Assembly (NCBI GenBank): GCA_039794085.1
Contig: JBDIWC010000089.1
Location: 1-11,000, forward strand
Length of the DNA: 11,000 nucleotides
Direction: 5' to 3'
Source of the DNA: Gemmatimonadales bacterium
GTDB lineage: Bacteria; Gemmatimonadota; Gemmatimonadetes; Gemmatimonadales; GWC2-71-9
A program made the position numbers and the translations under genes. Position 1 is the first letter of the stretch, and every line of letters begins with the position of its first letter. Shown one piece after another: positions 1-10,889 of this stretch. Under the pieces are notes generated by a model. It was not told where the DNA came from, did no database searches, and was given only the letters and a program-made list of their open reading frames with translations.

Positions 1-1415
1 TGCGCCGACGGGGAGCGGAACTGGCGGAGATCACCTACCGGTATGTGAAACTCCCCCGGGAATTCCGGGGCAACCCGGAGTTCGGGGGGCGGGTGGCCTT
101 TGCCCCGGTGCCGGGGGTCGGCTGGATTGTCCGGGAGTGGTCCCTGCAGACGCCGATCTACGGGGTGCGCGCCGATGGTGGCGGCTTCAGTGGGTATTCC
201 CGGCAAATGACAGTCACCAGTGAACTGGCGGCGCGGAGACGGCTGGCGGATGAGATGTCCATCGTGGGCTGGCAGCTCGAGGGGGGCACCGGACGGGCGG
301 TGGGCGAAGGCGGGCTCCTGCTTCCGTCCGGCCCCGGCCTCCGCCCCGATGGGGTGGAGTCGGTGGCGGGCCAGCCCCGGCTCTGCCGGTCGGGCGCCGA
401 TGTGGGGAACGGCCTGGGGGCTGTCGTGGTCCGGGTGGAACGGGAGGATTCTGCCCTGGTGGCGCCGGACGTCCCGGTGGTGGTCGTGGTGGGAGACGCC
501 GAGGTTCAGTCGGTGCGGCTGGCCAATGACCGGCAGCTCAGCGTGGTTCGGCCGGCGGTGCAGGTCAAAGGAGTGAGCAGCTCGGCGGGGTTCGTGGCGG
601 TCTGCGGGGTTCCGGTCGGGGCCCGGGTCCGGGTGCATGCCGGTTCCGTGAAGGCCCCGCCGGTACATGCGGAGGTGACCGAGGCCCCGGTGCCGGTGCG
701 GGTGGCCTATCGGCCGGTGCCGGCAGCTCCTGTGGTCGAGACCCCGGCGGGGGTGCTGCAGGGGCGGGTGATCGACTCGGTGGGCACCGGGCTCCCTGAT
801 GTGCAGGTCGTCGTCGCAGGTGCCGGTCGCTTTGTGATGACGGATAGTGGAGGCCGGTATAGGGTGACCGGGGTGCCCGAAGGGCGGTTCGAGGTGATCT
901 ACCGCCGGTTCGGCTACCAGCCGGCCCACACGTTCCGGGCCTTCCGCCAGGACACGAGCCGGGTCGACATGCGGCTCCAAGCCGAGGCGTTCGTGTTGCC
1001 GGAGATCACGGCGGAAGCGAGGGAGGTGGCGCGACCGACGCCGAAAATGGCCGGGTTCCTGGATCGGCGGGCCATGGGATTCGGGTCGTTCATCGACGAG
1101 ACGATCCTCCGGGAGCGGGAGTATTCACCTCTCTCCATGGTGCTCCGCGGCCATGTGGCGGGGGTGACGCTCGTCCACCTGGCGAACAACCAGGGGTACG
1201 GCGTCATGATGTCCCGGGTTCCCAAGTGCTGGGCGCAGATCTTTTTGGATGGCATGCGCATCGTGAAGGGGGGCGAACCATACAACATCGACCAGCACAC
1301 GGTGCAGAGTCTCATGGCGGTCGAGGTGTACAAGGGGGCCGCCTCCACCCCGGTTGAGTTCGGTGGGAGCAACTCATCGTGCGGAACGGTCCTGCTCTGG
1401 ACCAGGGACCGGTAG
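1..1415 (+). CDS. 5'-truncated multidomain exported protein: end of B core + two-Cys Cna-B-like domain + CarboxypepD_reg-like domain + C-terminal TonB-receptor-type plug domain (no barrel)
   Basis: The frame is open from base 3 (RRRGAELAEITYRYVKLP...), so the GTG at 45 is not the real start. The N-terminal LAEITYRYV...GRVAFAPVPGVGWIVREW matches LREVEFEYV...GSVHFERVPGLGWIVSEW of 4693-6477. VLQGRVIDS...TDSGGRYRVTGVPEG...RRFGY is CarboxypepD_reg-like. The C-terminal IFLDG...IDQH...AVEVYKG...CGTVLLWTR is plug-like. TAG stop at 1413-1415. Confidence 0.85.
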   Translation, partial: RRRGAELAEITYRYVKLPREFRGNPEFGGRVAFAPVPGVGWIVREWSLQTPIYGVRADGGGFSGYSRQMTVTSELAARRRLADEMSIVGWQLEGGTGRAVGEGGLLLPSGPGLRPDGVESVAGQPRLCRSGADVGNGLGAVVVRVEREDSALVAPDVPVVVVVGDAEVQSVRLANDRQLSVVRPAVQVKGVSSSAGFVAVCGVPVGARVRVHAGSVKAPPVHAEVTEAPVPVRVAYRPVPAAPVVETPAGVLQGRVIDSVGTGLPDVQVVVAGAGRFVMTDSGGRYRVTGVPEGRFEVIYRRFGYQPAHTFRAFRQDTSRVDMRLQAEAFVLPEITAEAREVARPTPKMAGFLDRRAMGFGSFIDETILREREYSPLSMVLRGHVAGVTLVHLANNQGYGVMMSRVPKCWAQIFLDGMRIVKGGEPYNIDQHTVQSLMAVEVYKGAASTPVEFGGSNSSCGTVLLWTRDR

Positions 1416-1416
1416 C

Positions 1417-1441
1417 GAAGTTTGAAGTTTGAAGTTTGAAG
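1417..1441 (+). repeat. Heptamer tandem repeat (GAAGTTT)x3 + GAAG directly after a stop codon
   Basis: Read directly: TAG-C-GAAGTTT GAAGTTT GAAGTTT GAAG. Confidence 0.95.
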
Positions 1442-1449
1442 GAGGGTCC

Positions 1450-2154
1450 TTGGCCGCAATCGAAGGCGCACGGAGAGCGATCCTGGCACTGTTGGTGTCG
1501 GTCGCATCAACGGGAATTCCCGGTGCGTCCGGGACCGAGGCCATGTCATTCATCGGAGGTGTGATCCTCGACAGCATCACCTCCCGCCCGATTCCCGGCG
1601 TACTGGTGTATGTGAACGCCACCCTCAGGGACAGTTCCAACGCCGACGGGCGGTACCGGGTCAAGGGGCTCACGAGGGGGGATTATGTCCTGCGCTTCGA
1701 GATGCCCGAGGCTGCCGCGGTGATGGATGGGATTACCGTGGAAGCCACCATCGACGAAGTGGGACAGCAGTACTATCTGGATGTGCTCTGGCCTTCGATG
1801 GAACGCGTGGTTGCCGATCGGTGCGAGGAGGATCACGGGAGGCGATCGGGTCCGGTGGCACTGTTGGGGCGGGTGATGGAGGCGGGTTCAGACTCCGCCC
1901 GGGAATATGGGCGCTGGGTGGCCACGGTTACCTGGTCTGGTGGCCTGACGGGGGAGGGGACCAGTCTCGAGGGAGACCGCCAGAGGGTGGTCGTCCCGGT
2001 CCAGGAGAACGGAGGATTCCTGGTCTGCCATCTTCCCGCCGGGGTATCAGCTCGCCTGATGGTGGAAGATCCGTTGACGGGGCCCGATCGGGGCCCGCTC
2101 CCGCTGGCCCTTCCGGTGAGCGGATTCCTTGCGGTGCGCTGGCCGGGGTCGTGA
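1450..2154 (+). CDS. Exported protein: CarboxypepD_reg-like domain + two-Cys Cna-B-like domain
   Basis: TTG at 1450 follows AAGGAGG (1439-1445); the ORF-track start at 1429 lies inside the repeat. The N-terminus RRAILALLVSVAS is signal-like. IGGVILDSITSRPIPGVLV...SNADGRYRVKGL is CarboxypepD_reg-like. The C-terminal C...ALLGRV...VTW...GGFLVCHLPAG matches the tails of 4693-6477 and 7664-9145. The start is uncertain. Confidence 0.75.
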   Translation: MAAIEGARRAILALLVSVASTGIPGASGTEAMSFIGGVILDSITSRPIPGVLVYVNATLRDSSNADGRYRVKGLTRGDYVLRFEMPEAAAVMDGITVEATIDEVGQQYYLDVLWPSMERVVADRCEEDHGRRSGPVALLGRVMEAGSDSAREYGRWVATVTWSGGLTGEGTSLEGDRQRVVVPVQENGGFLVCHLPAGVSARLMVEDPLTGPDRGPLPLALPVSGFLAVRWPGS

Positions 2155-2189
2155 CGTGAGCGACCGTGACGGGTGATAGACGGCGGCCC

Positions 2190-2223
2190 TTGCGTTGGGA
2201 AGTGCGGTGGCGTATCGTAAGAT
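2190..2223 (+). promoter_or_regulatory. Candidate sigma70-type promoter(s) for the lipoprotein gene
   Basis: TTGCGT(2190-2195)-17 bp-TATCGT(2213-2218), and an overlapping TTGGGA(2195-2200)-17 bp-TAAGAT(2218-2223), upstream of SD GGAGG at 2240-2244. Motif match only. Confidence 0.4.
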
Positions 2224-2248
2224 TCCAGTCACCAACACCGGAGGAGTG

Positions 2249-3421
2249 ATGGGAAATACTCGCCTGCTGTTGCTCGCCCTCGGCCTCACCGCCTGTGGGA
2301 CGCCGTCGTCGGATCACGACGTCCGCACCGCCGATTCCGCGGGTGTCACGATCGTGACCAGCCCCGGCACCGACCGGCCCTACCCCTTCACCGCAACGCT
2401 CCAGCGCCGTCTCGGCCTCGACGACGATGGCGTCGCGGCCCTCACCAGGGCCGACCGCCGCTTCACGGGGGTGGACAGCGAGCAGCGGATCTACATCCTC
2501 AATGCCCCCCTCAACCGCGTCGAGGTGTACGACACCGCGGGCCAACGTCTCGCGCTGATCGGAGGAGAGGGGGGCGGACCGGGTGAGTTCGGCTACCCGG
2601 CGGGTCTGCAGGTGAGCCCTGATGGTCAGGTCAGTGTGGTCGACTACGGGAAGGGGGCCCTGGTCCGATTCGGCCCGGACCGGATGCCGATCGCAGAACT
2701 TCCCTATCAACAGTTCGGCTTTCCCTACAGCGGCATTCAGGTCCAGGGAGATACGGTGTACCTGGACACGAATCGTCCCCGAGAGAACTCGGCGGTGTGG
2801 GCCCTTCGGAGATTCTCGCCCCGGGATTCGGTCACGATTGCCGAACTGGTCCTTCCCTCCAGTGGCGAACTCGACTTCGGGTGTGTCAGGCTCCGGTGGC
2901 AGGCCCCGGTGCTGAGCCCCTTGCTGGTATGGAGCGCGCGGGACAGCACCTTGGCGGTGGCCGCCGAAGCCGGATATCGGGTTGATCTACGAGTGAATGA
3001 CCGGTTGGTGAAGAGTATCCGCCGGAGTGTGACGCCCGTGCCCGGAGGTGCTGTCGCCGTGCGCCGGCAGTATCCGGAGGGGCTGCGGATTGGATTCGGC
3101 CGAGGCCGGGCCGACGGGTGCCTGATTTCGGTGGAGGACCTCATCGCGAAACAGGGTGCGGCACCGTTCGTACCGGAGATTCAAGGTCTCGCCCTGGCCC
3201 CTGATGGCACGCTCTGGGTCCAGCGCTACACCTTCCCCGATGAGCCGGAACGGGTGGATGTGTTCGATCCGTCGGGGGCCTATCGTGGTACGATCACCGG
3301 TCACGGGGTACCGGCGGGGTTCCTTCCCGGGAACCGGGTGCTCTTCCCGATCAAGGACAAGGACACCGATGGCTATTCCCTCGGCCTCTACGTACTCGAA
3401 CCGGAAGAAGGGGCTTCCTGA
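2249..3421 (+). CDS. Lipoprotein, NHL-repeat-like / 6-bladed beta-propeller family
   Basis: ATG at 2249 follows GGAGG. MGNTRLLLLALGLTAC is a type II signal peptide with lipobox LTA-C (Cys codon 2294-2296). It has the NHL-like IGGEGGGPGEFGYPAGLQVSPDGQVSVVD and blade motifs LALAPDGTLWV and VDVFDPSGAYRG. Confidence 0.85.
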   Translation: MGNTRLLLLALGLTACGTPSSDHDVRTADSAGVTIVTSPGTDRPYPFTATLQRRLGLDDDGVAALTRADRRFTGVDSEQRIYILNAPLNRVEVYDTAGQRLALIGGEGGGPGEFGYPAGLQVSPDGQVSVVDYGKGALVRFGPDRMPIAELPYQQFGFPYSGIQVQGDTVYLDTNRPRENSAVWALRRFSPRDSVTIAELVLPSSGELDFGCVRLRWQAPVLSPLLVWSARDSTLAVAAEAGYRVDLRVNDRLVKSIRRSVTPVPGGAVAVRRQYPEGLRIGFGRGRADGCLISVEDLIAKQGAAPFVPEIQGLALAPDGTLWVQRYTFPDEPERVDVFDPSGAYRGTITGHGVPAGFLPGNRVLFPIKDKDTDGYSLGLYVLEPEEGAS

Positions 3422-3449
3422 AGTGGCGCACGAGGCGCTCGCCCCCGGA

Positions 3450-3478
3450 GTTCCCGGGCTGAAGCCCGGTCTCGGCGC
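3450..3478 (-). repeat. REP-like palindromic element, inverted copy
   Basis: The minus strand reads GCGCCGAGACCGGGC-TTCA-GCCCGGGAAC, closely matching GCGCCGAGCCCGGCG-TTCA-AGCCGGGGAAC at 9478-9507. Confidence 0.6.
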
Positions 3479-3617
3479 CAGAGGCGCCGGGTCCTGAAGG
3501 ACAAGGGGCCTGTTATTCCCTCTCTCCTCGAAGCACCGTGAATGCCTTGAAGGGCAGTTCCCCGGGCCCTACGCCACGGGGACCGTGGAATGAGCACCCG
3601 GCCGTGCGAACGGCCGC

Positions 3618-3797
3618 AGGGCCGAGCCCGGGGCGAAAGCCCCGGGGATTCCGCCACGGACCCGTCGGGCTCCGCGCGATGACGACTCTCGATCAGCGGC
3701 TGTGTCCCTCGCGTCCGCTGGCGCGTCTCCCACAGAAGCAGTACTCTGATGGAAGGGAGCTGCACCTACTTCGGCCTCGGATGGAGGATGGATGATG
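3618..3797 (+). promoter_or_regulatory. Conserved structured leader, copy 1 (REP-like hairpin, further stems, candidate -10 box, SD)
   Basis: Aligns with 6502-6680. Contains the perfect hairpin CCCGGGGC-GAAA-GCCCCGGG (3627-3646), conserved GTACTCTGAT (TACTCT at 3742-3747 is -10-like), and GGAGG at 3783-3787. Confidence 0.7.
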
Positions 3798-4601
3798 ACG
3801 AAGACAGCGACCGACGTTCCATGTCAAGCAGTGCGCATGTTCGGTTGCCACCTCCGGTGGATGGGCGTCGCGGCCCTGGTCACAGCCACCCCCCTGTCCG
3901 CTCAGCACGTGCTTCGCGGCTCTGCCGTTGATACGACGGGGGCTGACCTCGCGGGAGTGGAGATCGTCCTGACAGGCACTGGACGGAGTGCCACCACCGA
4001 CAGCCAGGGCCGATACACGGTCACCGGGATTCCTCCCGGCCGGTTCGAGATTCTGTTCCGCCGACTCGGATATGCACCTCTGGTCATGTACCGGAGCTTC
4101 ATGGGGGACACCGGCACGACGGTGGTGGACGTGGAACTGGTGTCCGAGGCGGTGGTGCTGCCCGAGGTGGAGACCCGGGCGCGGGGACCGGCGGAGGTGC
4201 CCCTCAAGCTGCGGGAGTGGGCCCGGCGCCGGGAATACAACGGGGCGGGGAAGTTCTGGGATGATTCGCTGCTCCGCACGAAGGAGTACCAGCGACTCCC
4301 GGAGGTACTTCAGGGCATTCCCGCGATGCGCATCATCCGGGCGAACGGAGGGCGCTATGCCGCCTCGGCGAGAGGATCAGGGGGCACAAGGCCGGCGGAT
4401 CCACGCATGCCACCCGCGTGCTATCTGCAGGTGTACCTGGACGGCGCCAGATTGTCGGGATCCTACACACCTCCCAATCTCGACGACATTCCGGTTCACC
4501 ACATCATTGCCATGGAACTCTACCGGTCCCAGGTGGAACTCCCGATAGAATTTGCCGGGCCGGGGTCGGGATGCGGAGTCCTCGCCATCTGGACGCGGTA
4601 G
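3792..4601 (+). CDS. Exported CarboxypepD_reg-like + TonB-receptor-type plug protein lacking a beta-barrel (R-P, copy 1)
   Basis: SD GGAGG followed by ATGATG (start 3792 or 3795). Signal peptide ends ...ATPLSA|Q. HVLRGSAVDT...TTDSQGRYTVTGIPPG...RRLGY is the R domain. Plug-like LPEVLQGIPAM...CYLQVYLDG...LDDIP...MELYR...CGVLAIWTR is followed by the stop. Confidence 0.88.
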   Translation: MMTKTATDVPCQAVRMFGCHLRWMGVAALVTATPLSAQHVLRGSAVDTTGADLAGVEIVLTGTGRSATTDSQGRYTVTGIPPGRFEILFRRLGYAPLVMYRSFMGDTGTTVVDVELVSEAVVLPEVETRARGPAEVPLKLREWARRREYNGAGKFWDDSLLRTKEYQRLPEVLQGIPAMRIIRANGGRYAASARGSGGTRPADPRMPPACYLQVYLDGARLSGSYTPPNLDDIPVHHIIAMELYRSQVELPIEFAGPGSGCGVLAIWTR

Positions 4602-4602
4602 G

Positions 4603-4637
4603 GAAGTTTGAAGTGTGAAGTCTGAAGTTTGAAGTGA
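4603..4637 (+). repeat. Heptamer tandem repeat (GAAGTNT-type) x5 after a stop codon
   Basis: GAAGTTT GAAGTGT GAAGTCT GAAGTTT GAAGTGA, starting 1 nt after TAG 4599-4601. Confidence 0.92.
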
Positions 4638-4692
4638 CGGGATGCTGGCAGTTCCGGTACCGTGAAGGTGCAAGTAAGGAGATGACAGGGGA

Positions 4693-6477
4693 ATGATCAC
4701 TTTGCGTCACATCGCGTGGATCTCCACGCTGGGTCTGCTGATGGCCGGCCCGGCCTCCCTGTCAGCCCAGGCCATCCGCGTCATCCTCGTCGAGGAAGGA
4801 ACAGGCAATCCGGCTGCGAGCAGTCTCGTCTCCCTGCTCTCGGAGTCGGGATCGAGACTCGTCCAGATGCTGGCCGACGAGTTCGGACGGGCCACGCTGC
4901 CCACACCGGGGCCTGGACGGTACCGGGTTCGGGGGGACCGGATCGGTTTTCTGAGCCACACGTCCGACCCGGTTACCGTCGCGTCCGGTGACACGGTCTC
5001 GCTCCGCCTCACTCTCCCGATGACGCGGTTTGTCCTGCCGGATGTAACCGTGATGGCAGAGTCCCGCTGCACGACGGCGGGAGTGGAACGACGTGACATC
5101 AGCGTGGTCTGGGAGGAGGCGCGCAAGGCTCTCACCTCCACGGTGCTGACCCGCGAACAGGTCCGGCCGGTGCTGCAGGTGACCGGTCATGAGCGGGAAT
5201 GGGATACCGAGGACCATCTCGTGCGGGAGGACACCTCCTTTGCGAAACGGGGGACCGGAGCTCCCTTCCACACTCTCCCGGATGACACCCTGCTCCTCGA
5301 AGGGTTCTCGCGCGAGGAACGCGGAACCCGGATGTTCTACGCCCCCGATGCGGGAGCTTTGCTGAGCGAGGCGTTCCTGGGGAGTCATTGCTTCACACTC
5401 GTCTCCGACAGCCGTGATGGAAGGGACCGGGTCGGACTTCGATTCGAACCAACGCCGGACCGCAGCGTACCGGACATTGCGGGCACCCTCTGGCTCGATC
5501 GGGTCGAGAATCTGTTGCGGGAAGTGGAGTTCGAGTATGTCAACGTCGAGCCCCCCTGGGATCGGCATCGAGCCCACGGATCGGTCCACTTCGAGCGAGT
5601 GCCCGGTCTCGGCTGGATCGTCAGTGAGTGGAGGGTCCGCATGCCCCGGGTGGTGGTGGAGGAGGTGCGCCCCTCACGCATGGAGACCCGGGCATCGAGC
5701 GGAGATGGCAGACGACGGGTGACCCGTGTCGAGGAGACCGACCGCGCCCCGGTAGCCCCCGACATCCGTACCCGATTCGTCCCGCGGGGGACGAGGGAAC
5801 AGAGCGGGTATGCGGTCGTGGCCGAATCCATGGCGGGGAATCAGCCCGACGGGGCGATCGGGGGGATGATCACCGGCGTCGTGTACGACTCGGTGTGTGG
5901 CTCTGGAATCTCCGGCGCCGCGGTCTCTCTTGCCGAAAGCCGCAGTGCCGCCCTGACGGATTCCACGGGTCGCTATCTCCTGTCTGTCGGAACCAGTGGC
6001 CCGGTACGCGTGAGGATCACCCATCCCGTTCTTGACCTCCTCGGGGTTCCTCCGCTGCACGAGGCCGTGGTTCCCGCCGGAGGGATCGTTCGGCTGAATG
6101 CGGCGACCCCGGGTCGGGACAGGTGGCTTCTCGATCAGTGTGGTCGCAAAACGGTGCGCAATGACCGACTCGGAGCCCTGGTGGGACGCCTTCCGGAGAC
6201 TCCGGGGGGCACCCCGAGGCGGCGCGGTGAAATCCGGGTGTCCTGGTTTGCGGGGAGCGTCACCCAGGCCGGCAGCGGCGTGGTCACTGTGGTGCGTCGA
6301 GGACACATGGATGTGACGACCGATGAGAAAGGGCGGTTCCTGGCCTGTGACGTTCCCCTTGGCGTCCCGGTGCGGATGCGGGTGAATGGGGAGACGGATT
6401 ACCAGATCGAGCCCTTGACGCCCGAGCAACGGGTCACGGTCTTTCCCGTGGCCGCAGGGGGCGACCGGTCGCGATAG
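4693..6477 (+). CDS. Exported multidomain protein: CarboxypepD_reg-like + conserved beta-rich B core + second CarboxypepD_reg-like + two-Cys domain (copy 1)
   Basis: 594-aa ORF with a signal peptide ending ...ASLSA|Q. ADEFGRATL...PGRYRVRGDRIGF is R-like. Core motifs VWEEARKAL, MFYAPDA, LLSEAFLGSHCF, IAGTLW, EVEFEYV and LGWIVSEW are shared with 7664-9145. A second R domain is ITGVVYDS...TDSTGRY. The tail is TDEKGRFLACDVPLG. Confidence 0.88.
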   Translation: MITLRHIAWISTLGLLMAGPASLSAQAIRVILVEEGTGNPAASSLVSLLSESGSRLVQMLADEFGRATLPTPGPGRYRVRGDRIGFLSHTSDPVTVASGDTVSLRLTLPMTRFVLPDVTVMAESRCTTAGVERRDISVVWEEARKALTSTVLTREQVRPVLQVTGHEREWDTEDHLVREDTSFAKRGTGAPFHTLPDDTLLLEGFSREERGTRMFYAPDAGALLSEAFLGSHCFTLVSDSRDGRDRVGLRFEPTPDRSVPDIAGTLWLDRVENLLREVEFEYVNVEPPWDRHRAHGSVHFERVPGLGWIVSEWRVRMPRVVVEEVRPSRMETRASSGDGRRRVTRVEETDRAPVAPDIRTRFVPRGTREQSGYAVVAESMAGNQPDGAIGGMITGVVYDSVCGSGISGAAVSLAESRSAALTDSTGRYLLSVGTSGPVRVRITHPVLDLLGVPPLHEAVVPAGGIVRLNAATPGRDRWLLDQCGRKTVRNDRLGALVGRLPETPGGTPRRRGEIRVSWFAGSVTQAGSGVVTVVRRGHMDVTTDEKGRFLACDVPLGVPVRMRVNGETDYQIEPLTPEQRVTVFPVAAGGDRSR

Positions 6478-6501
6478 CAGGTGGACGTGTGAAGCCGGAT
6501 G

Positions 6502-6680
6502 AGGGCCGAGCCCGGGGGAAAGCCCCGAGGTTCCGCCACGGACACCCCTCCGGGGTCCTCGCGATGACGAATCCCGAGGAACATCTGTGTTCCTCGCGTC
6601 CGCTGGTGCGTCTCCCACAAAGGCGGTACTCTGATAGAGGATGGACCTGCGCCTGGACCTCGGATGGAGGACGAATGATG
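6502..6680 (+). promoter_or_regulatory. Conserved structured leader, copy 2
   Basis: Homologous to 3618-3797. Stems are CGGGG-GAAAG-CCCCG (6513-6527), CCCC-TCC-GGGG, and a perfect CGAGGAACA-TCTG-TGTTCCTCG (6575-6596). GTACTCTGAT is conserved and GGAGG is at 6666-6670. Confidence 0.7.
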
Positions 6681-7493
6681 ACGATGACAGTCAGCCGACC
6701 AATCATGTTCAACAGCCCCTATGTTCGGTTGCCCCTTTGGTGGGCTGGTATCGCGGCCCTCGTCGCGGCCAGCCCCGTGTCCGCTCAACACGTTCTGCAG
6801 GGCCGGGTGACGGACACCACGAACGCCGGCCTGTCCGGCGTGGAGGTCGTACTGCCGGCCCTCAAACAAACCGCGACGACCGACGCCGAAGGCTACTACC
6901 GGATCGTGGGCATCCCTGGAGGCCCGCGGCGCATCGTGATGCGGAAGATCGGATTCCAACCCCTCAACTCACTGCACACCCTGATTGCCGACACGGTGGT
7001 GCTCGACGTGCGGATGGCCCCGCAGGAGGTGGTGCTTCCCACCATCGAGGTCACCGCCCGGGGGCTGGAAGCGGTGCCGGCCAAGCTCAGAGGGTGGGCG
7101 GAACGGCGGGAACGGGGCGAGGGGACCTTCTTCGACACCTCCTTCCTCCGGGAAAACGAGCACCGGGGCCTCAAGGATATCCTGCGACGGGTCACCGGAT
7201 TCCGGCTGGTGCGATTCTTCGATGGCGCCGGCTATGGCGCCGCGACCGGGACTCGGAACATCAGCTTGTCTCGGCGACCGGCCCCGATCGGGGCCCCCGA
7301 CGCCTGTTACATGTCGGTTTATCTCGACGGTGCCCTGATGTGGAGATCCGGATCCACGTCCACTCCCCCCGATCTCGACAGCTTCCCGCTCCATCAACTG
7401 GCGGCGATCGAGGTATACCGTTCCGCGTCGGAGATGCCCGCCCAGTTCAACACCGATGCCGCGTGCGGAGTCCTGTCGATGTGGACCCGATAG
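6675..7493 (+). CDS. Exported CarboxypepD_reg-like + TonB-receptor-type plug protein lacking a beta-barrel (R-P, copy 2)
   Basis: Start reassigned to ATG 6675/6678 after GGAGG, by homology with 3792. Signal peptide ends ...SPVSA|Q. Motifs: HVLQGRVTDT...TTDAEGYY...RKIGF; CYMSVYLDG...LDSFP...IEVYRS...CGVLSMWTR, then stop. Confidence 0.88.
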   Translation: MMTMTVSRPIMFNSPYVRLPLWWAGIAALVAASPVSAQHVLQGRVTDTTNAGLSGVEVVLPALKQTATTDAEGYYRIVGIPGGPRRIVMRKIGFQPLNSLHTLIADTVVLDVRMAPQEVVLPTIEVTARGLEAVPAKLRGWAERRERGEGTFFDTSFLRENEHRGLKDILRRVTGFRLVRFFDGAGYGAATGTRNISLSRRPAPIGAPDACYMSVYLDGALMWRSGSTSTPPDLDSFPLHQLAAIEVYRSASEMPAQFNTDAACGVLSMWTR

Positions 7494-7494
7494 A

Positions 7495-7532
7495 GAAGTT
7501 CGAAGTTTGAAGTTCGAAGTGTGAAGGGTGAA
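7495..7532 (+). repeat. Heptamer tandem repeat x5 after a stop codon
   Basis: GAAGTTC GAAGTTT GAAGTTC GAAGTGT GAAGGGT GAA, starting 1 nt after TAG 7491-7493. Confidence 0.92.
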
Positions 7533-7623
7533 AGCGGTCATCCCGAGCCGCGGGCGAGGGATCTGTGAACGCCGCTGGTGTACTTCCCGTCGTCCGGATT
7601 CCAGGGGTATCCTTGAATCGGAT

Positions 7624-7645
7624 TGCTCACACGAAGGCACGAAGG
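7624..7645 (+). repeat. 22-bp exact direct repeat, copy 1 (TGCTCACACGAAGGCACGAAGG)
   Basis: Identical to 9389-9410; contains tandem CACGAAGG x2. Confidence 0.9.
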
Positions 7646-7663
7646 GTGCGCAGGAAGTTTGCA

Positions 7664-9145
7664 GTGGGAAAACTGAACCCGGGAGCCCGTACGTGTGTTC
7701 CAGGTCTTGCCCTGCTCGCACTGGCGACCTGCATCGTCCCCCTCCATGGGCAGGGGATCCAGGTGACGCTGGTGGAGGAACGCTCCCGCGTGGCCGTGCC
7801 CGGTCTCGTCTCGGTTCTGTCCCTCGACGGCGCTACCGTCGCGAGGGCCCTCACCAACCCCTCGGGCTATGTGATGATCCCGGTCCCCCCGGGCCGCTAC
7901 GTGGTGGAGGGGGCCCGGATCGGCTTCTTCGGTGCCCGCTCGGACACCCTCACCGTGGTGGAAGGGAGTGCGGTCACCCTGCGCCTGGGGATGCCCATGG
8001 ACCAGGTGATGCTCCCGGAGGTGGTGACCGAGGCCCGGCGGTCCGAATGCTCGGTGCGGGACCGGAGCCCCGACCTGCAGACCGTGTGGGAGGAGGCGCG
8101 GAAGGTACTCGCCACCGTGGTGCTCACCCGGGAGCAACTCCACCCGACGCTCGAGGTGGTGCGGTTCGAGCGCACCCGCGGTCCCCTCGGGGCCCTCGTG
8201 TCGGAGCGCGAGGTGGCCCGGCGCCGGGGTTCCGGAAACCCCTACCACACCCTGACCCCTTCCGAGTTGCTCGACGGGGGCTTCTCCCGCACGACCGAGG
8301 GCCAAGTGATGTTTTACGCCCCCGACGCCGACCTCCTGCTGAGCGAGGACTTTCTCGCGACCCACTGCTTCGGGCTCAGGGCCGATGCCGCGAGAGGCCG
8401 CATTGGGCTGACCTTCACGCCGATGCCGAGCCGCCCTCAGACCGGCATCGCCGGAACCCTCTGGATGAACCGCGCCGAAGGGGAGCTGGAAGAAGTGGAG
8501 TTCGAGTACGTAAAGGCGCCGTATCCCTATAACCGCACCCGGTCCACCGGCGTGGTCCGGTTTGCCCGGATGCCTCGGCTGGGCTGGATCGTGGGGGAGT
8601 GGGAGATCCGGATGCCCAAAGTGGCCCAGGTCCGGCAACGGATCGTCGGCGCCCAGCTCGAGGAGCGGGAGGTGGTCATCGGGTCGGTGGAGGTGGGAGG
8701 AGTCGCCACGCCGGTGGATCCCGCGGAACGGCGGGTCGTGGTCGCGGCCCGGCAACGGACCGACAGTGTGGCGGGCGTATCACCCGCCGCTCCCCTTCCC
8801 GGAGGGTTCGCGTCCGCCGAGGCGCTCCTGGAGAGCTACTGCGGAGCGGCCGTCGCGGCGGATTCCAGCCGGGGAATCCTCATCGGAATGATCCGGACCG
8901 CGGACGGGGGCCCGGTGGAGGGGGCTCGGATGCGCGTGTCCTGGGGAGGGGATGCCGCCCCTCGCCCCGGGGTGTCCACCGATTCCGGCGCCGAGACGGA
9001 TGCATCGGGTGGGTTCTTCGCCTGCGGGGTACCACTGGGGGGAGTGCTCCGGGTGGACAATGGAGGCCGGCCCGTCGGGAAGCCGATCGGGACTCGTCGG
9101 GGGGAGCGGGTGATCACCCGGGAGTTCGTGGTTCCGGAGAAATGA
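7664..9145 (+). CDS. Exported multidomain protein: CarboxypepD_reg-like + conserved beta-rich B core + two-Cys domain (copy 2)
   Basis: Paralog of 4693-6477 (VWEEARKVL, MFYAPDADLLLSEDFLATHCF, IAGTLW, EVEFEYV, LGWIVGEW, TDASGGFFACGVPLG). GTG 7664, preceded by AGGA at 7652-7655, gives a normal-length signal peptide ending ...VPLHG|Q. The start is uncertain. Confidence 0.85.
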   Translation: MGKLNPGARTCVPGLALLALATCIVPLHGQGIQVTLVEERSRVAVPGLVSVLSLDGATVARALTNPSGYVMIPVPPGRYVVEGARIGFFGARSDTLTVVEGSAVTLRLGMPMDQVMLPEVVTEARRSECSVRDRSPDLQTVWEEARKVLATVVLTREQLHPTLEVVRFERTRGPLGALVSEREVARRRGSGNPYHTLTPSELLDGGFSRTTEGQVMFYAPDADLLLSEDFLATHCFGLRADAARGRIGLTFTPMPSRPQTGIAGTLWMNRAEGELEEVEFEYVKAPYPYNRTRSTGVVRFARMPRLGWIVGEWEIRMPKVAQVRQRIVGAQLEEREVVIGSVEVGGVATPVDPAERRVVVAARQRTDSVAGVSPAAPLPGGFASAEALLESYCGAAVAADSSRGILIGMIRTADGGPVEGARMRVSWGGDAAPRPGVSTDSGAETDASGGFFACGVPLGGVLRVDNGGRPVGKPIGTRRGERVITREFVVPEK

Positions 9146-9164
9146 AGTTTGAAGTTCGAAGTGG
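9144..9164 (+). repeat. Heptamer tandem repeat x3 overlapping a stop codon
   Basis: GAAGTTT GAAGTTC GAAGTGG; the TGA stop at 9143-9145 overlaps the first unit. Confidence 0.85.
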
Positions 9165-9546: not shown

Positions 9547-9589
9547 CTTCAACCTTCACACTTCAAACTTCAAACTTCCAACTTCCAAC
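9547..9589 (-). repeat. Inverted heptamer tract (AAACTTC-type on +, GAAGTTT-type on -), ~6 units, abutting a start codon
   Basis: CTTC AACCTTC ACACTTC AAACTTC AAACTTC CAACTTC CAAC, then GTG at 9590. Confidence 0.92.
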
Positions 9590-10753
9590 GTGACTCTGCA
9601 CACCGCTCACCGCACCCATCGTTTCACCGAATCGGTCATCCGCGGCATGACCCGGCTGGCCCGGGAGCATGACGCGATCAATCTGGCCCAGGGGTTCCCC
9701 GACTTTCCCTCCCCCGACGTGCTCAAGGATGCGGCGTGCGACGCCATCCGGCGTGACATCAACCAGTACGCCATCACCTGGGGTGCCACCCGTCTCCGGA
9801 ACGTCCTGGCGGCGAAATACCACGAGTGGTACGGGATGGAGGTGAACGCCGAGACCGAAATCACCGTCACCTGCGGCGCCACCGAGGCAATGGCCTCGAC
9901 CCTTCTCGCCATCGTCGACCCGGGGGACGAAGTGGTGGTGCTCGATCCGTTCTACGAGAACTACGGGCCCGATGCCGTGCTTTGCGAGGCGAAACCGGTC
10001 TTCGTCCCGATGGCTCCCGGCGAGGCCCTCGATCTGGACCGGCTCGCCGCCGCCTGTTCCGAGCGGACCCGTGCCATCATCGTCAACACCCCCAACAATC
10101 CCGCCGGCCGGGTGCTGCGTCGTGAGGAACTGGAGGGGATCGCCGAGCTCTGTCGGCGGTGGAACTGCTACGCCGTGACCGACGAGATCTACGAGCACAT
10201 CCGCTACGAGGGAATCCACATTCCGATCGCCACCCTGCCGGGGATGCGGGAGCGAACCATCACGATCAGCGGGGCCTCGAAGACCTTCAGCATCACCGGC
10301 TGGCGCGTCGGGTGGATCATCGCCCCGCCGGGAGTGACCGACGCGATCCGGAAGGTGCACGATTTCCTCACGGTGGGTTCTCCCGCGCCACTGCAGGATG
10401 CCGTCGCGGCGGCGCTGGAAACCCTCGGTCCCGACTACTATGCCGGTCTGGTCACCCAGTACCGAGCCCGCCGGGAGATCCTCCACGGCGCCCTGGTGGA
10501 CGCCGGTTTCCGCTGCGTGTCTCCCGAGGGCGCCTACTATATCATGGCCGATTTTTCGGCGCTCTCCTCCGACGACGACACGACGTTCAGTCGCTGGATG
10601 GCGCGGGAGGTGGGGGTGACGCCGGTACCGGGCTCGAGTTTCTTCAGCGATCCCGCGCTGGGGCGGTCCCTGGTGCGCTTCGCTTTCTGCAAGACGGAAA
10701 AGCTGCTCCAGGCCGCGGCGGTGAGGCTGCGGACTCTAGGGAGTAGGGAATAG
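9590..10753 (+). CDS. PLP-dependent aminotransferase class I/II (YbdL / kynurenine-glutamine transaminase / DapC-like subgroup)
   Basis: 387 aa with motifs INLAQGFPDF, TCGATEA, NTPNNPAG, DEIYE, SKTFSITGWRVG (PLP lysine) and VRFAFCK. Substrate cannot be assigned from sequence alone. Confidence 0.93.
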   Translation: MTLHTAHRTHRFTESVIRGMTRLAREHDAINLAQGFPDFPSPDVLKDAACDAIRRDINQYAITWGATRLRNVLAAKYHEWYGMEVNAETEITVTCGATEAMASTLLAIVDPGDEVVVLDPFYENYGPDAVLCEAKPVFVPMAPGEALDLDRLAAACSERTRAIIVNTPNNPAGRVLRREELEGIAELCRRWNCYAVTDEIYEHIRYEGIHIPIATLPGMRERTITISGASKTFSITGWRVGWIIAPPGVTDAIRKVHDFLTVGSPAPLQDAVAAALETLGPDYYAGLVTQYRARREILHGALVDAGFRCVSPEGAYYIMADFSALSSDDDTTFSRWMAREVGVTPVPGSSFFSDPALGRSLVRFAFCKTEKLLQAAAVRLRTLGSRE

Positions 10754-10833: not shown

Positions 10834-10889
10834 GTCCTATGTCCTATGTCCTATGTCCTATGTCCTATGTCCTATGTCCTATGTCCTAT
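10834..10889. repeat. Perfect heptamer tandem repeat (GTCCTAT)x8
   Basis: Eight identical units counted directly, 56 bp. Confidence 0.97.

Follow-up and report, generated by a model that had tools for sequence, protein, structure and literature searches.

Possible TonB-docking cassettes with predicted LolA-like domains or barrel-less plugs in a Gemmatimonadales genome

Introduction

A stretch of 11,000 nucleotides from a Gemmatimonadales bacterium (assembly GCA_039794085.1, contig JBDIWC010000089.1), here called the window, was investigated regarding two kinds of putatively periplasmic proteins encoded side by side. The window is the entire contig C89 of a genome of 4.16 Mb. In both proteins a carboxypeptidase-regulatory-like domain (R; PF13620/PF13715) precedes either a plug (P) or a domain termed B core (B), and the genes are named RP (R-plug) and RB (R-B), respectively. 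T denotes a Cys-bearing R-like domain and SP a signal peptide.

We tentatively favour the explanation that these genes encode shuffled docking cassettes bearing a LolA-like domain or a barrel-less plug, which would act as side-by-side periplasmic clients of TonB and not as a cognate bound pair. The docking cassette would consist of a SusC-like N-terminal domain and a TonB-box-like strand, taken from the front end of a transporter. Its payload would be one of two interchangeable modules, a predicted LolA-like carrier domain or a plug without barrel. TonB may grip the box-like strand of RP and RB proteins, the groove of B may hold a hydrophobic ligand, and the plug may serve as a variable recognition module. 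This explanation is preferred because the box-like strand is enriched before both payloads and occurs twice in fusions, and because the predicted folds are LolA-like for B and similar to TonB-dependent transporters (TBDTs) for the plug. Furthermore, a plug was swapped at the residues LPE of the box, the linkage of B and plug is loose with repeated fusion and loss, R-plug units are also fused to TonB_C and to a tail of 155 aa, and an RB gene follows a run of tonB, exbB and exbD. It is ranked above shuffling without functional coupling, then direct binding of B and plug, and last an action of plugs on barrels or propellers.

The proteins constitute a real modular family made of known parts, which is apparently undescribed. 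The first-pass annotation, made from the window sequence alone, knew of no named system with this organisation, and none was found by us. Literature searches covering titles and abstract openings, with subscription journals and supplements outside their scope, yielded no paper on the RP/RB family.

Genes of the family in the window

3..1415 (+): fusion gene SP-R-B-T-R-plug, of which the contig end leaves only the 3' part; full-length versions are P0299/P0300
~6-161, ~378-707, ~756-1007 and 1035-1406 (+): B end, T, R and plug of the fusion gene, in a single frame
996..1004 (+): LPE of the TonB-box-like strand, plug-swap point; nt 1004 is the last position similar to the paralogs C30 and C35
3618..3913 (+): upstream and leader DNA with a second copy at 6502-6796 (78% identity); includes a genome-wide repeat element
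3792..4601 (+): RP1, with SP (..PLSA|Q), R, box-like LPEVET (4158-4175) and barrel-less plug
4693..6477 (+): B1, with SP (..SLSA|Q), R, box-like LPDVTV (5035-5052), B core (5053-5655), R and T
6675..7493 (+): RP2, second R-box-plug gene; 45% identity to RP1
7664..9145 (+): B2, with R, box, B core (8036-8626) and T; 41% identity to B1 over 394 aa

The five open reading frames described in the first-pass annotation were recovered (<3-1415, 3792-4601, 4693-6477, 6675-7493, 7664-9145), and a codon-usage gene caller found 8 of 8 window genes. Each of the two RP genes lies directly 5' of an RB gene. The first frame opens with the C-terminal 52 aa of a B core, followed by T, R and P. That it represents a true fusion of B to plug was confirmed by P0299 and P0300 (744 and 746 aa) from other assemblies, where the upstream part contains a full B core. 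The B part of the window frame is 98% identical to P0299, and its plug is 95-97% identical to P0299/P0300. An assembly artefact is ruled out by these copies together with a contig of run X3, which covers window positions 950-3575 with zero differences across the junction of R and plug. The latter is not an independent confirmation, since it stems from the same sample as the best holder of the sequence. Six more fusions are present in this genome, four complete (C35, C69, C103, C106) and two truncated (C20, C30). The window contig begins mid-gene at a repeat common to C30, whose first 120 nt are identical. The pair of RP2 and B2 was found on a single contig of a related strain in runs X5 and X6 from a second study.

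The two RP-RB pairs of the window probably arose by one tandem duplication, because about 300 bp of upstream DNA is common to both (3618-3913 and 6502-6796). The domain order of the fusion, B then plug, fits the neighbours B1 and RP2 and not the order of RP followed by B proposed in the first-pass annotation.

TonB-box-like strand and TonB context

RP and RB proteins carry a strand of the type L[PDE][ED][VI]xV after R, at the same position as the box in the TBDTs of this genome. In the SusC protein Bt1763 the tested box is 81-VDEVVV-86, after PF13715 (PMC7782687); the position of the RP/RB strand matches it at the sequence level only. A loose box pattern, composed after the sequences had been viewed, occurred right after R in 245 of 364 cases of R before B and in 125 of 167 cases of R before a Cys-type plug. 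It was also detected in 18/30 cases before a second type of plug and in 4/6 true TBDTs. Elsewhere it was rare, with 11/200 for R before R or T, 18/138 for R without known follower and 467/5000 for random 26-mers. In fusions two boxes are present, one before B and one before the plug.

This genome contains five TonB_C matches, four of them over the cut-off. At G000:C46:195-8784 (L161) the genes tonB-exbB-exbD-exbD-tonB-permease-RB-propeller form a run on the same strand. In two genomes R-plug is fused to TonB_C itself (L118:1051-2301, L123:1099-2415). A further fusion, to a tail of 155 aa, was found in five genes of two genomes (L111:1888-2355, L140:3569-4027, L151:844-1314, L152:742-1224, L158:3408-3881). 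Judged by its sequence pattern, with alternating hydrophobic strands and an aromatic residue at the C-terminal end, this tail is possibly a small outer-membrane barrel; comparison with Pfam and the PDB gave no match. Long frames before the R-plug genes of L140, L143, L146, L148 and L158 were considered as extra partners and dropped as non-coding.

Predicted folds of plug and B core

The plug matches PF07715 weakly, below the cut-off (E 1.5e-4 to 2.9e-3). Its model (pLDDT 88.5) gave 37 Foldseek matches at E<=0.001, and all 50 listed rows were TBDTs with TM up to 0.62. The plug profile reached E 6e-6 against the PDB. Thus, a TBDT plug fold without barrel is predicted. In the RP genes and in the fusion only 0-2 residues follow the plug, so that they end at its last strand, where a barrel would start. 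No C-terminal 22-strand beta-barrel is present in them, and PF00593 had no match in the window. In NCBI, P0045 and P0305 bear the label 'TonB-dependent receptor' despite having no barrel.

Two cysteines of the plug are invariant or nearly so (4419 and 4572 in RP1, which ends with GVLAIWTR-stop) and may form a disulfide. According to 10.1101/755678, the N-terminal part of TBDT plugs is force-labile and the C-terminal part stable. The Cys pair lies in the C-terminal part and would not constrain the labile one. Another plug subfamily, with a motif of its own, is likewise fused to B.

For B no Pfam family could be assigned; none of 81 B sequences matched LolA or LolA-like models at E<=1, and the B profile had no relevant match in the PDB. 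The model from a 119-row alignment (pLDDT 88, pTM 0.83) shows an N-terminal helix of 27 residues and a long antiparallel sheet. In VIA the top 11 rows were all LolA/LolB/LppX-like (Z 5.1-7.8), the best being 4z48 (Z 7.8, rmsd 3.8, 143 residues aligned). Foldseek gave none at E<=0.001 (E>=0.048, TM ~0.3), with LolA-like proteins and RseB ranked first. The predictions are consistent with a LolA/LppX-like half-barrel with its own helices, at a moderate level of match. The B1 core also carries the invariant Cys pair of this domain. According to PMC13103446, helices of this kind form the base of the groove in LolA3 and shield it. B with LolA-like helices would therefore offer no empty cradle. Thus, the earlier suggestion of a curved B core cradling the plug in place of a barrel found no support, with long and short helices of its own predicted for B.

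SP-like starts ending in AxA|Q are present in RP1, RP2 and B1. Of 249 B homologs, 109 had an SP-like start according to a crude pattern, and three had a lipobox. Both protein types are presumed to be periplasmic. B homologs comprise 4030 cluster representatives at E<=0.001. Two tandem B cores in one protein were observed in P0152-P0156 and P0289, and in P0170 the unit R-B-R-R is joined to a peptidase M28 domain.

Linkage of B and plug

Recurrent fusion was verified, as a plug stands at the C-terminal end of 30/120 near homologs of B and of 68/150 cluster representatives (25-45%), although the latter set was ranked by score and clustered at 50% and may favour fusions. The repeated adjacency stated in the first-pass annotation holds in so far as it is above random expectation; a plug lay within 3 kb of 3 among 22 unfused B genes versus 0.2 expected (about 15-fold). 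However, in the sampled genomes the majority of B genes had neither a fused nor an adjacent plug. Among 40 relatives, 16 genomes contained B, and their 27 B matches were fused in 5 cases, adjacent in 3 and neither in 19. Of the standalone plugs in those relatives, counted without rows weaker than E 1.1e-9 and without TBDT-like rows, 3/74 were near a B and 12/74 near another plug versus 0.88 expected. No match to a Cys-type plug was obtained in 4 of the 16 genomes with B, where second-type plugs were not searched genome-wide.

A hand count of 79 GTDB loci, some of them redundant or cut by contig ends, gave 14 fused anchors, 4 with a plug-bearing neighbour and 61 with neither. The records are labelled Gemmatimonadota for 77 of these loci. 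L038, labelled Rhodospirillaceae, shows a tandem B pair like the Gemmatimonadales loci L035, L040 and L048 and is possibly mis-binned. Further 33 loci from other genera comprised 3 fused, 1 with a divergent neighbour and 29 without plug; they are a subset of 42 new non-genus matches, nine being omitted as partial, contig-end, unpublished or over the fetch limit. With linked B loci of only 8/27, 4/33 and 18/79 and the few standalone plugs near a B, the two-partner system read earlier from the window is not supported as a dedicated or obligate one.

The number of B matches per genome was 16 here, 10 in the congener and 0-4 elsewhere. Seven of the ten B loci of the congener were read and contain arrays of RP, fusion and RB genes. 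Judging by these counts, the dense alternating arrays are a genus-level tandem expansion. RP genes often lie beside fusions which already carry a plug (C103, C106, L008, L012, L017, L185). On a FastTree tree of B with 365 tips at least 61 changes between fused and unfused were counted (shuffled mean 101). Covariation between the domains, underpowered with 60 fusions (effective 50), gave a top B-plug score of 4.9 compared with a mean shuffled maximum of 4.7. The distance correlation of B and plug (0.41) was not above that of R1 and plug (0.43).

Exchange of plugs

The window fusion and its paralog C30 are 98% identical in the B end, 82% in the linker, 90% in T and 86% in R, but only 36% in the plug. 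Their DNA similarity ends at nt 1004, inside LPE. Where other fusions share B cores of at least 85% identity, their plugs are at least 58% identical, compared with 33-34% for swapped pairs. Beyond P0299/P0300, the only relative found for the plug of the window fusion was the standalone RP protein P0301 (46%). From these alignments we infer that a plug was exchanged at the TonB box under a nearly unchanged B, as a single event. It shows that a B can tolerate a very different plug.

Weighing of the explanations

Several observations speak against the favoured explanation. The loose box pattern was fitted to sequences already seen, and a strict pattern was found in only 48/364 cases of R before B, 52/167 of R before plug, 2 TBDTs and 5 internal R. 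The box-like strand also belongs to the end of the PF13715 model and could be structural or vestigial. At just one of the 79 B loci was TonB encoded within 8 kb. The invariant Cys of B lies 6 residues past the box, and a bond at this residue would restrict unfolding under a pull. The fold match of B is moderate (Z <8 and the Foldseek values above). Fusion of B with plugs of two subfamilies is more frequent than a purely shared adaptor needs, and some of the genes labelled unfused are truncated.

Shuffling without functional coupling is the strongest competitor, but we regard it as unlikely. R-box cassettes would recombine in paralog arrays, the box would be a leftover strand and the proteins would have unrelated jobs. 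The enrichment of plugs near plugs (12 versus 0.88) is about equal to that of plugs near B (3 versus 0.2), as expected from such shuffling. The non-family neighbours are mixed, with the top Pfam family accounting for 6/74 upstream genes and 5/102 of the pooled set, and the genus-specific expansion of B is in line with it, too. However, the box is retained before payloads and mostly missing after internal R. Moreover, the added C-terminal module of long B homologs is nearly always a plug, and the TonB_C fusions point to the Ton system.

Direct binding of B and plug, with the curved sheet of B replacing a barrel as in the first-pass model, is somewhat less likely still. It would account for the frequent fusion with two plug subfamilies and for adjacency above chance. 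In genome G010 a fusion is followed by a split RB|RTRP pair (L153), and the order RP then RB recurs in other genera (L008 group, L080, L091). Binding of protein partners is known for proteins of the LolA fold, such as RseB. On the other hand, the B model resembles LolA-like proteins in having a long helix and short helices of its own, and a plug was swapped under a B with 84-98% identity. RP genes beside fusions with their own plug and the 4/16 genomes with B but without a match in the Cys-plug search, which left second-type plugs aside, are also contrary to it. In addition, B and plug are usually 1-3 Ig-like domains apart in fusions.

An action of plug-only proteins on barrels of the outer membrane or on propeller lipoproteins, in which they would serve as a spare plug, a decoy or a ligand and B would be an occasional passenger, is improbable: several plug-only genes do adjoin SusC-like TBDT genes (L116, L120, L121, L123, L137, L143, L150), 5 of 26 in this genome adjoin a propeller gene and R-plug is joined to the small barrel-like tail, but there is no clear plug-less barrel for the ~26 plug-only genes, because all 15 long PF00593 frames of the genome (718-1110 aa) have room for their own plug and the only short match is a fragment of 189 aa. 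Full TBDT genes were also observed 3' of RB genes in several loci.

Comparison with known systems

The SusC/RagA TBDTs, represented by Bt1763 (PMC7782687), have R, the position of the box-like strand and the plug fold in common with RP proteins. In contrast to these barrel-bearing transporters, RP genes end at the last strand of the plug and carry the extra invariant Cys pair. In RB proteins the plug is replaced by the LolA-like domain, and no SusD neighbour is present in the window.

A curved antiparallel sheet with N-terminal helix, as predicted for B, is known from LolA/LolB/LppX proteins (4z48 DUF1329, 3buu NE2245, 9tp6 LolA3, 3bk5 VP, 2byo LppX, RseB/MucB). The identity to B is ~10%, without Pfam match. 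Unlike these proteins, B has Ig-like flanks, the box motif and an invariant Cys pair, and no lolCDE context was seen.

The nearest described barrel-less receptor is VreA of Pseudomonas aeruginosa (PUMA3), a mostly soluble, receptor-like periplasmic protein (PMC2729926). It keeps the N-terminal part of a transporter, as RP and RB do. VreA, as described there, has an STN domain, a TolA/TonB-like C-terminus and an ECF sigma factor with regulator, whereas RP/RB proteins have CarboxypepD_reg and a plug or LolA-like payload. Neither STN domains nor ECF sigma/anti-sigma genes were found in the window or in the list of the 25 commonest neighbour families.

Bacteroidota DUF5686 (PF18939) proteins with a carboxypeptidase-regulatory domain emerged as an Atlas lead only (score 0.89, cluster 14% DUF5686). 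Membership of B is not supported, as 0/81 B sequences match PF18939 and the one weak match of the genome is another gene. BamP was considered as analogue, and the accessible part of PMC12611786 contains no link.

To our knowledge, the known TonB clients are outer-membrane barrels. A soluble family keeping the docking cassette would widen the range of clients of the Ton motor. If TonB docking is true, a large, so far unannotated class of exported proteins from a little-studied phylum would also receive a function. More speculatively, and in our view with little likelihood, an all-periplasmic Ton system of Gemmatimonadota is conceivable as a diversifying, barrel-free use of this motor, in which TonB pulls soluble LolA-like carriers for the loading or release of lipid-type cargo and exchangeable disulfide-stapled plugs, recombined at the TonB box, set the specificity or gate the carrier. 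More generally, the Rosetta-stone inference weakens where modules are promiscuous.

Other features of the window

1429..2154 (+): gene with R and T only, 29% identical over 215 aa to the tail at the C-terminus of B1; its start is uncertain, the gene caller prefers 1561
2195..3421 (+): six-bladed beta-propeller gene (DUF5128/NHL) with lipobox-like LTAC

The propeller protein is likely a lipoprotein, and its gene is regarded as a neighbour and candidate member only. A class I/II aminotransferase gene (9590-10753) is unrelated to the RP/RB family. No RNA dataset carrying the window sequence was among the listed holders.

Arrays of 3-4 GAAGTNN-type 6-mer units were observed at 1417-1437, 4603-4630, 7495-7522 and 9144-9164 (+) and at 9558-9585 (-). 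Four of these five follow directly after stop codons, and 152 arrays of at least three units exist genome-wide. REP-like short repeats at ~3590-3650 and 7535-7600 have dozens of copies in the genome (75-95% identity). Near the contig end, gtcctat units form a short tandem run (10835-10888).

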